A stretch of 20,781 nt of DNA from Promethearchaeia archaeon (GTDB taxonomy: Archaea > Asgardarchaeota > Lokiarchaeia > Sigyniarchaeales > SOKP01). Position 1 is the stretch's first letter. Every line of letters begins with the position of its first letter. Made by a program: the position numbers and the translations under genes. The notes beneath the pieces are model-generated. The model was not told the DNA's origin. It searched no databases and saw only the letters and a program-made list of their open reading frames with translations. This document shows positions 3,816-20,600 of the stretch, one piece after another. The stretch spans positions 1-20,781 of the forward strand of contig JAHQWG010000044.1 in NCBI GenBank assembly GCA_029856045.1. The letters run 5' to 3'.

Positions 3816-4223
3816 TTAATTTTCATTTTTAAGTTTTTTGATGATATCTTCAAGAATGTTTATGATACGTTCCTTGTATGGTGTTTGATTGGGGTAATTA
3901 TAGCTGAAGGTTTTCCAATGGGGGCGTTTATGTCCCAGTTTAAATTTCACGCCGTTCATGGAAGTCATGTAGGAGTTATTATTTATTTTAGTGGCTATTT
4001 GGTCGGCTATTATATACCAATGAAATTTTGTTTTGATGGCGGCGCCAGTATTGGTAGGTGCAGGGTTGATTCTGGTTTTTATGGAATTGAATTTAAAATT
4101 CCATCTATCAGGAGTATTTTTAGTTTCATACCATTTACCATTCTTGTAATTCCAATGATGTGAATTACCAATTTTCATACCAGAATAAATTTTATTATTA
4201 TATGTTTTAAGGGAATCATACAT
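3816..4223 (-). CDS. Hypothetical protein (135 aa, basic, Trp/Tyr/His-rich)
   Basis: ATG-started ORF; YSGMKIGNSHHWNY and FHWYIIADQ segments resemble an uncharacterised family I recall from bacteria (unverified). Confidence 0.7.
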   Translation of the reverse strand: MYDSLKTYNNKIYSGMKIGNSHHWNYKNGKWYETKNTPDRWNFKFNSIKTRINPAPTNTGAAIKTKFHWYIIADQIATKINNNSYMTSMNGVKFKLGHKRPHWKTFSYNYPNQTPYKERIINILEDIIKKLKNEN

Positions 4224-4565
4224 TTTTTAAACACCAATTTTTCTATGTAATTCTTTAATTATTTGTTCTATCAACAATTTTTTCTAACTTATTGTGTCCC
4301 AAGATAATTTTTCTTAATATTAGTAATAGCCAATATAAAATTATCATATAAATATAATGAAGGTCTCCCAATTTTTCGTTAATAATCCCTTAAGCATTTA
4401 GAATTTTAATATTTGGATTTTAAAAGCAATATTTTATAAAAAAAACCTTTAATGAATGCATTAATTTTATTTAATTAAAGGAAAACCAAAAAATTAATAT
4501 ATTTGAGAGTTGCATTATTAAAACGTTGGGGTTTTTTTATCTATTTAAAGTTGTGTGCATAAATT

Positions 4566-5385: not shown

Positions 5386-5488
5386 AGGGACGTAGCTCAG
5401 CGGATAGAGCGGTGGCCTTCGGAGCCAAGGGTCGGGGAAAGATTCCCGTTTCGGGGGTTTTCCGAAAGTTCAAATCCCTCCGTTCCTA
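5386..5488 (+). tRNA. tRNA-Arg(TCG) with 30-nt T-arm intron
   Basis: Spliced 73-nt cloverleaf: acceptor AGGGACG/CGTTCCT, D arm GCTC/GAGC with A20, anticodon loop CTTCGGA, T arm GGGG^G-TTCAAAT-CCCTC; CCA not encoded. Confidence 0.93.
5438..5467 (+). other. tRNA-Arg intron at position 52/53
   Basis: Central helix TCGG/CCGA, bulges GG^A and AA^G; intron stem AAGATTCCC/GGGGGTTTT. Confidence 0.9.
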
Positions 5489-12029: not shown

Positions 12030-12092
12030 TAATCATTTGATTTTCAAAAAAGAATAATTCAGATGATTTTATGCCAAGGAGGGGATTTGAAC

Positions 12093-12122
12093 TTTCGGAA
12101 AGCCTCCGAGGTGGAAACTCTT
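12093..12122 (-). other. tRNA-Phe intron 2 (30 nt) at position 52/53
   Basis: Helix TCGG/CCGA, cuts GG^A and AA^G; stem AGAGTTTCC/GGAGGCTTT. Confidence 0.9.
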
Positions 12123-12160
12123 CCCCGATACCTGGATCTTCAGTCCAGTGCGTTCCCGGG

Positions 12161-12199
12161 TTGCGTTGCATAATGGAAAAATATTGATCCACTATACAT
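12161..12199 (-). other. tRNA-Phe intron 1 (39 nt) at position 15/16
   Basis: Helix GCGT/ACGC, bulges AG^A and AA^C; 11-bp intron stem TGTATAGTGGA/TCCATTATGCA. Confidence 0.9.
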
Positions 12200-18836: not shown

Positions 18837-20086
18837 TTAAATCTTCAATACTTTTATTTGTCTCGGAATTTTCAAATCTTCTTCTGTTCCAACGCAAATT
18901 ATTGAATTTATTTTCATATTTACTGCCAAGGAAATTAGTCTTTTAGATAAAATACCATCTATTATTAAGTATTTTATATTTGAAAATTCACTCAAATTAT
19001 CAAATAATTCTGCAGTATTTAATTCAAAAAGAACATTTTCCTGTGAGTCAATTCCAATTGCTTTTTTTGTTCCTACAGAATTAGAAATATACTCACTAAT
19101 TTTTGATCCTTTATCGAGTTTCAATATTTTTAAAATATTTTTATATTTATTCTTCGAATCTTTTATTTTTTTTTCAATTATTGGTTTCCTTTTACGTGAT
19201 GTATCTACTGATGAATTTTTATTATTAATAATTTCTGAAATTGCTCTCTTATTTTGAAGTGCTTTAACCATCTGTTTTCTTGTTAATTCTTCAACTTCAA
19301 GACCATCAGGAGCTCTTGCAACATAATCAAGGTGTGCTACTTGCAATAATTCATTTAATATTATTGTGCCTCCCCGGTCTCCATCTAAAAAAGCAGTAAT
19401 TGGGCTTTTATTATGAGTTAATTCAATTATTGACTTAGGAATTTGAGTACCTTCCACTGCAATAGCATTTTTGATATCTATACGCAGTAAATTTAAGACA
19501 TCTGCTCTTCCTTCAACTATTAAGAGATCTTGGCTAATATCAACATCAGGACCTGCAGGTAAATTTTCATCTCCCCATTTTTTAATTTCACTAAGCCTAA
19601 TATCTTGAGAAATTTGCTCTTCAATTTCCCTTGGCTCGGGACTATTTTCATCCCATTTTTTTAATAACTCTGTGGCTCGTTCAATAATTTGTTTTCTTTT
19701 GTTTTCGCGAATATCTTTGATATCTTTAAGGTCAATTTGTGCGGAACAAGGACCTACACGACTTACGGTTTCTATTGTCGCTGCCAATAAAACGGTCTCT
19801 TTTCTTGTTAGACTTGATGGTATAATTATTTTACCTTTAGAAATTCCCTCTTCGGTCGTTAATTCGACCTCAATTCTTCCTATTCTCCCACTTTTTTGTA
19901 AATCCCTTAAGTCTAAATCCGATAAAAGACCTTCGGTTTAGGCGATATGACCGAAGTGGCTATTTATCTTTGCCCAAAAATGGCACCGACAATATCGCTC
20001 TTTTCAACCACTCCATTTACTTTATAATTTGCTATGATATGGTATTTCGTAGTGAAATTAGAAGTATAATGATCATTATCTGAAAT
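18837..20086 (-). CDS. dnaG: Archaeal DnaG (exosome-associated, TOPRIM); two exons, join(20086..19970, 19937..18837), ~405 aa, probable ATT start
   Basis: Exon 1 ..KYHIIANYKVNGVVEKSDIVGAIFGQ; exon 2 TEGLLSDLDLRDLQKSGRIGRIEV..RVGPC..IVEGRADVLNLL..AFLDGDRGG; SD-like GAGGAGTGTGA (20104-20094) 7 nt before ATT. Confidence 0.9.
19938..19969 (-). other. Putative 32-nt BHB/BHL-type mRNA intron in dnaG
   Basis: GGGC-AA^A-GATA...TATC-GCCT-AA^A; cleavage after the 2nd bulge nucleotide on each strand rejoins CAA|ACC (Gln|Thr) in frame. Confidence 0.85.
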
Positions 20087-20600
20087 TATTTAATCACACT
20101 CCTCTTTTTTTGTAATTTAATTTTTATCTAAATTTTTCAATTTTTAAATGAATAATATATAATAGTGAAATAATTTTGATTTATACTAATTTCGTCATAT
20201 AAATTATTTTTATTAACAATATTAAAGTAGAACTTTTCAAATTTATTTTTTTGGAATTTAAATTCAAATTTACCTAATACTTAGGTATTATTCTATTATT
20301 TAATTTTTAAATGAAAATATTAATATTATGTATTGGGATGAGAAAATAATTGAAAAGATATTTACAACTCACATTCATAAAAATTTTAAGACAATATATA
20401 AAACAAATTTTGGTAGATTCTATCTCTATTTTAAAAAGGATAATGAAAATGAAATCTCTGGTAGAGTTGTTTTTTTTCCTTCATCTTATTGAAATTCTCC
20501 TAATATTTTTATTAAACCAGTTAAAAAAAATAACAATCTTAAAATTAGGAAACAATTTTTATAGATTCACCTCTTTTTTATTCCAACAAAGTAATTATAT

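Follow-up and report, generated by a model that had tools for sequence, protein, structure and literature searches.

Can a conserved protein gene of an archaeon be expressed only after its message has been spliced in the manner of a tRNA? This question is raised by dnaG on the minus strand of the stretch of DNA analysed here (20,781 nucleotides, hereafter the window), where 32 nt stand between the two halves of the motif GAIFGQTEGLL. The window is the entire contig C43 of genome G000 (3.34 Mb, 55 contigs, 100% complete by score; GC content 29.4%), whose host belongs to the Asgard archaea, as the initial annotation had supposed. The evidence collected from the locus, from its relatives and from public RNA data indicates that the insert is very probably a genuine mRNA intron of the BHB (tRNA) type, spliced by EndA and RtcB, with cleavage by EndA itself as the presumed step.

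The interrupted dnaG gene and the fold of its junction

The 3' end of exon 1 reads ...VVEKSDIVGAIFGQ (GAIFGQ), with 19970 as its last base and AGA TAA as the next codons. On the other side of the insert, a TAA immediately precedes ACC (19937), from where exon 2 reads on through 366 aa before its stop at 18837. The insert supplies the in-frame TAA to exon 1 as well as the TAA abutting exon 2, and stops interrupt both exon frames across the 32 nt with no read-through. Standard gene calling of dnaG gives a truncated ORF, and the frame of exon 2 alone yields only 316 aa from its earliest TTG/ATG. The joined frame encodes GAIFGQTEGLL, as it does in insert-less relatives, and the predicted junction peptide of the spliced product is SDIVGAIFGQTEGLLSDLDLR.

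No ATG, GTG or TTG was found upstream of the conserved FTTKY in exon 1, which opens with TAA ATA ATT (20092-20084). For this reason, the product length of about 405 aa given in the initial annotation, which excision does restore together with the invariant DnaG motif, presupposes an ATA or ATT start (40 + 366 = 406 aa); the candidates are ATA at 20089-20087 and ATT at 20086-20084, and the choice is uncertain. In most relatives dnaG starts with a GTG located within the conserved (E)V-IKIT. In the window genus (20084-20105, minus strand; also L002-L005 and L013) this GTG is out of frame (GTG ATT AAA TAA) and the dnaG frame opens with TAA ATA ATT, preceded by GGAG. Translation in this genus is therefore probably initiated at ATA or ATT, or by some coupling to the 3-codon upstream ORF. 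In genome G010 (L013), an in-frame TAG was observed as the third codon of the same start stretch.

Re-reading of the minus strand returned the insert coordinates (19969-19938), the stops and the helices exactly as the initial annotation had listed them. From 5' to 3', the junction RNA reads UUU-GGGC-AA↓A-GAUA...UAUC-GCCU-AA↓A-CCGAAGG, where the arrows mark the splice sites (Table 1). The central helix is fully paired, since its G-U, G-C, G-C and C-G partners all pair, and its 5' strand together with two bulge bases corresponds to the last six bases of exon 1 (GGGCAA). The intron's first nucleotide is base three of the 5' bulge, and its last two nucleotides are bases one and two of the 3' bulge. 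A cut after the second base of each bulge excises 32 nt and restores the frame, the exact position being ambiguous by at most 3 bases owing to the AAA/AAA repeats.

The junction has the features of a BHB motif, namely a 4-bp central helix and two 3-nt bulges on opposite strands. From the strict hBHBh' form it has the inner helix and lacks the outer exon-exon helix: next to the 3' bulge, 0 bp of outer helix were found in 55 of 55 insert-bearing loci, and the best outer pairing is a displaced UUY/GAA which leaves a 5-nt bulge. As the outer helix has 0 bp at the 3' bulge, the predicted motif is assigned to the relaxed (HBh'-like) BHB class as defined in PMC5829648, and not to the strict one. The relaxed, BHL-like character claimed in the initial annotation is thereby retained, with the correction that the central helix is perfect and that the outer exon-exon helix is the missing part.

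When the region is folded in isolation, its minimum-free-energy structure differs from the BHB fold. The intron loop CUUCGGU (19950-19956, minus strand) can pair without mismatch with the 7 nt that open exon 2, ACCGAAG (19931-19937), and this 7-bp pairing dominates the unconstrained fold; a similar pairing was seen in family f3. It was considered as a functional element and not treated as such, because no covariation with the ACN synonymous site was found in the relatives (alignment A1; family f1). Rfam gave no match at the insert site, neither at the gathering threshold nor at E up to 0.1. A self-splicing intron of group I or group II was rejected on this result and on size (32 nt versus a core of hundreds of nt). 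Membership in the cbf5 intron family by homology was rejected as well, the host gene being dnaG (Toprim; GAIFGQTEGLL), though the insert works like the cbf5 intron.

Table 1. Features of the dnaG locus and of two tRNA introns in the window.
Feature	Position	Strand	Remarks
dnaG exon 1	19970..20089	-	40 codons, IISDNDHYTSNFTTKYHIIANYKVNGVVEKSDIVGAIFGQ; kept in relatives
dnaG exon 2	18837..19937	-	366 codons + stop, TEGLLSDLDLRDLQKSGRIGR..., P0001; Toprim domain at residues 138-217
BHB-type intron, 32 nt, AGATAAATAGCCACTTCGGTCATATCGCCTAA	19938..19969	-	Alignment of relatives; RNA contig skipping 32 nt
Central helix, 5' strand GGGC	19972..19975	-	Gly codon GGG + C of Gln CAA; pairs 4/4 with 19940-19943
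Central helix, 3' strand GCCU	19940..19943	-	Intronic; 100% of cells paired
5' bulge AA↓A	19969..19971	-	5' splice site after second base
3' bulge AA↓A	19937..19939	-	3' splice site after second base; without closing exon-exon helix
Intron arm	19944..19968	-	Inner helix GAUA (19968-19965)/UAUC (19947-19944) closing hairpin GCC-ACUUC-GGU
tRNA intron, 30 nt, T arm	5438-5467 (tRNA 5386-5488)	+	UCGG/CCGA central helix
tRNA-Phe intron, 30 nt, T arm	12122-12093 (tRNA ~12060-12165)	-	UCGG/CCGA central helix

Same-site inserts and covariation in relatives

In order to see how the site behaves elsewhere, dnaG was searched in relatives, and the junctions of 99 loci of the same class were fetched and scored by script. 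An insert at the identical codon boundary was found in 55 of them (44 distinct sequences), with lengths of 29-43 nt, most of which are not divisible by three (37 nt in 17 loci, 32 nt in 8, 40 nt in 7, 29 nt in 6, 38 nt in 6, others rarer). The other 44 loci join the motif precisely and without interruption, so that the site shows a clean presence/absence polymorphism. The insert was already present in 17 of the 30 assemblies of relatives fetched first, which excludes the misassembly against which the initial annotation had cautioned.

All 55 inserts have four of four central pairs and 3-nt bulges (AA↓A, AG↓A, AA↓U or AA↓G in the relatives), a recurrence of the same architecture that exceeds chance. 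In alignment A1, built from the 44 distinct sequences, the central helix is 100% paired, the inner helix (11-13/45-47, GAU/AUC) is 93% paired and the hairpin helix is 100% paired where aligned; slid registers pair in 11-50% of cells only. At pair 6:49, which joins the synonymous third base of the Gly codon to its intron partner, the counts are CG 27, AU 7, UG 6, GC 2 and GU 2. The covariation score is 0.149 versus 0.069 in shuffles and is reached in 0 of 500 shuffles, a figure that is not a probability because the relatives share ancestry. A pair whose type switches from genus to genus while the exon base concerned is synonymous is nevertheless the signature of a selected RNA helix. The commonest type of intron in family f1 (e.g. 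L014, L046, L049) holds a tandem repeat (A/U)AUCGGCU, of which copy 1 forms the 3' strand of the intron hairpin and copy 2 the inner helix and the central-helix strand; this repeat permits an alternative register.

The protein encoded by exon 1 has also been maintained. In the insert-bearing lineages, exon 1 shows a pN/pS of 0.165 over 78 pairs, and L001 and L005 differ by 10 synonymous and 3 non-synonymous changes, which indicates that purifying selection acts on exon 1 where the intron is present. Exon 2 was likewise found to be under purifying selection.

In family f1, fetched junctions confirmed the genomes with the insert, and most of those without it were inferred from open frames of at least 35 codons upstream of exon 2; the denominators given here are therefore partly inferred. 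The insert was present in all genomes examined of g1 (5/5), g3 (6/6), g4 (3/3), g9 (2/2), g5 (1/1) and g8 (1/1), in part of g2 (~18/38) and g11 (~15/53), and in none of g6 (0/8), g7 (0/5) and the single genomes of g10, g12 and g13. All five genomes of the window genus carry the intron at the same site. Open-frame length was discarded as the sole proxy for the intron, five short-frame loci of f1 (L043, L044, L059, L062, L081) being without insert. In genome G141 (genus g2), two dnaG copies were observed (contigs C91 and C40), one intron-bearing (open frame of 352 aa) and one intron-less (413 aa); they may reflect a mixed bin or a real polymorphism.

Outside f1 but within the class, scoring relied on directly fetched junctions: the insert is present in f3 (1/1) and absent from f2 (12 genomes), f4 (4) and f5-f7 (7). 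The intron-less family f2 is the one with cultured relatives. A wider sample of the phylum comprised 110 further genomes. Introns at the same site were found in f9 (32 nt, GGCC/GGUU) and in f13 (31 nt, GGUC/GACC). In f17 (L107-L109, L141, L142), a BHB intron of 28-31 nt is located 13 nt downstream of the GQ-TE boundary, inside a Leu codon, with the helix GCCU/GGGY, the bulges AC↓A and AA↓U and an intron stem of 4-9 bp; its removal restores GQTEGLLGEDLDL. No dnaG intron was seen in the fetched loci of 19 of the 20 other families of this sample, the twentieth (f10) being unscored with two fetched loci and a recognisable junction in neither. The intron is not peculiar to the window genome and shows a patchy distribution over several Asgard families.

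A broader reading of this distribution, put forward with considerable reserve, is that the GAIFGQ-TEGLL motif could be a place where small mobile BHB introns have inserted repeatedly in Asgard archaea, with DnaG output perhaps tuned by EndA/RtcB. Behind it stand the same-site introns with unlike interiors in f1, f3, f9 and f13, the second site in f17, and the co-existence within g2 and g11 of genomes with the intron and genomes cleanly without it. If it were true, introns of the tRNA type would be actively gained and lost in protein genes of those prokaryotes that are most closely related to eukaryotes, and the output of DnaG (exosome/primase) might be tuned by EndA/RtcB activity.

Spliced RNA and the candidate splicing enzymes

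Public Logan contigs were matched to the window at 85% likeness. From metatranscriptome run X2, a contig of 530 nt (depth 34) matches positions 19501-19936 and then 19969-20017, skipping 32 nt. As the AAA/AAA repeats make its placement ambiguous by 3 bases, its product is exactly the predicted GGGCAA↓ACCGAA, and the spliced transcript foreseen in the initial annotation is found with precisely the 32-nt deletion. Run X3 of the same study gave a contig of 5929 nt spanning 19790-20110 without gap, in which the insert is kept; the run is unlabelled and was taken as DNA because its longest contig has 107 kb. The contigs of X2 and of X3 differ from the window identically at all listed positions (19531-19842), and since these differences agree they are attributed to one strain, about 94% identical to the window. 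A functional frame is thus accompanied by a spliced RNA in the form of one assembled contig of this close relative, a type of record that gives no splicing ratio; among the contigs of X2, none covers the insert. The spliced contig is chimeric at its far end, its last 30 nt lying on the opposite strand at 20037-20066 (region 20017-20066); this fold-back may be an artefact of the library or of the assembly near the 5' part of the transcript. Runs X1 and X6 span parts of dnaG only, and X1, which has the insert, is of doubtful library type and was left out of the evidence.

The contig from X2 could alternatively derive from the dnaG, as DNA or RNA, of a co-occurring strain which never bore the insert, the insert of the window then not being removed in RNA. 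Insert-less alleles do exist in the same family, even inside g2 and g11, metatranscriptome Logan contigs can contain DNA, and the matching was done at 85% likeness. The listed strain differences shared by the X2 contig with the insert-containing X3 contigs, and the same-site intron in five of five genomes of the window genus, argue against such a strain, which moreover could account neither for the covariation nor for the purifying selection on exon 1. It is therefore regarded as very improbable.

It is even harder to credit that dnaG is a pseudogene, or a gene in the course of inactivation by a small insertion, from which exon 2 alone or nothing is made. The truncated ORF of standard calling, the 316 aa available from the first TTG/ATG of the exon-2 frame and the exon 1 without a canonical start codon would fit this explanation. 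Against it, the genome, with its completeness score of 100%, has a single dnaG, so that the intact second copy considered in the initial annotation is not there; 55 loci have retained the insert while compensatory changes arose in it; the protein of exon 1 is preserved despite many synonymous changes, a dN/dS near 1 having been tested and not found; and spliced RNA exists. Ribosomal bypass of the 32 nt, by translational hopping or frameshifting on an unspliced RNA, deserves equally little credence: the insert is short and structured, with a stop codon two codons in, like known bypass sites, and cbf5 introns were once mistaken for frameshifting by early annotators (PMC2738675), but an RNA contig without the 32 nt exists, insert length varies from 29 to 43 nt, and what is conserved is the BHB geometry with its exon-intron covariation and not take-off and landing codons. 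The reading as an mRNA intron accordingly stands, and because the sole dnaG is broken by the intron and a spliced message is present in public RNA data, expression of dnaG needs RNA splicing.

Two EndA paralogues, of 197 aa (contig C15) and 203 aa (contig C14), are encoded in the genome, and RtcB is also present. The 197-aa protein is most similar to the catalytic alpha chain found in the heterotetrameric enzymes of Aeropyrum, Sulfolobus and Pyrobaculum and aligns a Lys with Lys44 of the crenarchaeal (CSL/L1) loop. The 203-aa protein has EPAKY where catalytic subunits have EHSKY and so lacks the catalytic His. From these comparisons, both proteins are predicted to form an alpha/beta pair of the broad-specificity type. 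Asgard archaea possess an (alpha-beta)2 EndA with the L1 loop, and relaxed motifs are cleaved only by that type and by epsilon2 (PMC5829648); a cognate EndA for relaxed motifs and the RtcB ligase are both encoded here. Removal of the insert from RNA by other means, such as another nuclease and ligase or a self-cleaving fold, is scarcely plausible: the motif is without outer helix and the action of EndA is deduced indirectly, but no Rfam family occurs at the site, a length of 29-43 nt is far below that of group I or II introns, EndA reads precisely the features that are conserved here, and the EndA alpha of this genome has the loop permitting relaxed substrates (PMC5829648).

Both tRNA introns of Table 1 have the bulges GG↓A and AA↓G and obey the rule of cutting after the second bulge base, which the initial annotation had proposed for the tRNA introns of the window and which holds in these two, checked by hand. 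ARAGORN miscalled the tRNA at 5386-5488 as Pro with a 9-nt intron, and ARAGORN and Rfam together detected 2 tRNAs only in the window, the intron-bearing tRNA-Phe being missed.

Outside the window, the motif GKTILFGE↓HFVVYG of mevalonate kinase is split by an insert of 31 nt (G000:C36:116809-116839, plus strand), with a central helix GGCG/CGCA (3/4 pairs), bulges AA↓A and AU↓C, and a hairpin containing the same 9-mer as the dnaG intron, CCACTTCGG. To judge from its sequence, this insert looks like a second mRNA intron of the genome. An intron family defined by this exact word was rejected as too weak, with 9 occurrences versus ~3 expected. Scanning for the hairpin word C[CT][AG][CTA][TC]T[CA]GG recovered dnaG and one candidate (C15:+147154-147197) and missed the mevalonate-kinase insert. 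A de novo scan of the genome for BHB motifs joining two open frames gave 4145 candidates versus 3946-4284 in slid-register controls, with no excess at any folding-energy cut-off. Without homology such a scan cannot separate real mRNA introns from chance, and no intron count was therefore drawn from it.

Proposed splicing of dnaG and comparison with known systems

Starting from the anatomy, conservation and covariation of the junction, from the spliced RNA and from the enzyme genes, we infer that EndA and RtcB act at the dnaG site, and where exactly the cuts fall. In the pre-mRNA, the GGGC of the Gly-Gln codons would pair with GCCU close to the 3' end of the intron, placing the splice sites in the AA↓A bulges that flank the 4-bp helix, with the GAUA/UAUC helix of the intron closing the 5' bulge. 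A heterotetrameric (alpha-beta)2 EndA would then cut after the second base of each bulge, and RtcB would presumably ligate the exons to GGGCAA↓ACCGAA, the excised intron being expected as a circle. Translation of the spliced mRNA would give a DnaG of about 406 aa with an intact GAIFGQTEGLL, and unspliced RNA would give only a peptide of 41 residues. The initial annotation had stated that, through the intron, an exosome subunit is tied to the machinery that splices tRNAs. This stands as a dependency, which by itself does not demonstrate regulation; a regulatory role, with the level of DnaG following EndA/RtcB activity, is no more than a possibility.

In Asgard archaea, a core gene that is both conserved and single-copy is thus seen to depend on the tRNA-splicing pathway, on the evidence of covariation and of a spliced transcript. 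In practical terms, dnaG is labelled as truncated or split in dozens of Asgard genomes, and marker-gene and phylogenomic pipelines may mishandle the split gene. The observation also bears on the routes by which protein genes acquire and lose introns in the lineage closest to eukaryotes, and the clean presence or absence within genera offers a natural system for studying intron gain and loss.

The literature search found no paper linking dnaG with an intron, in agreement with the novelty presumed in the initial annotation. Recent papers on Asgard archaea cover tRNA introns only (PMC11291895; bioRxiv 10.64898/2026.10.13.758758), and cbf5 is described as the only archaeal coding sequence with confirmed BHB splicing (PMC2738675; same statement in 2020, PMC7714728). 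The dnaG intron is the same kind of system as the cbf5 intron, in a new gene and a new phylum. The cbf5 pre-mRNA intron of Aeropyrum, Sulfolobales and Desulfurococcales (Watanabe 2002; Yoshinari 2006; Yokobori 2009, PMC2738675) is likewise a short and often relaxed BHB intron within a coding sequence, occurs in hosts with hetero-oligomeric EndA, is patchily distributed with gains and losses, and has been annotated as a split or frameshifted gene. The two differ in gene and in lineage (Asgard archaea of the Lokiarchaeia type instead of Crenarchaeota), and no sequence relation between them is claimed. In contrast to cbf5, half of the central helix of the dnaG motif is made by two invariant codons (Gly-Gln), and across several Asgard families introns are found in the motif, at two separate positions.

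Two further systems are close. The BHB intron of Haloferax volcanii HVO_1309 (PMC7714728) also resides in an mRNA, was found by circular-RNA sequencing and is cleaved by EndA in vitro; it is located in the 5' untranslated leader and leaves the coding sequence intact, whereas the dnaG intron interrupts the coding sequence. The non-canonical tRNA introns of Asgard archaea and Thermoproteales (relaxed HBh'/hBH; PMC5829648, PMC11291895, bioRxiv 10.64898/2026.10.13.758758) resemble the dnaG intron in size (~30 nt), in the bulge rule and, presumably, in the enzymes involved, and the tRNA introns of the window share with it the H-bulge geometry and a similar hairpin of the UUCGG type. In contrast to these, dnaG offers no tRNA body as a recognition aid and, the host being an mRNA, its splicing must restore the reading frame.
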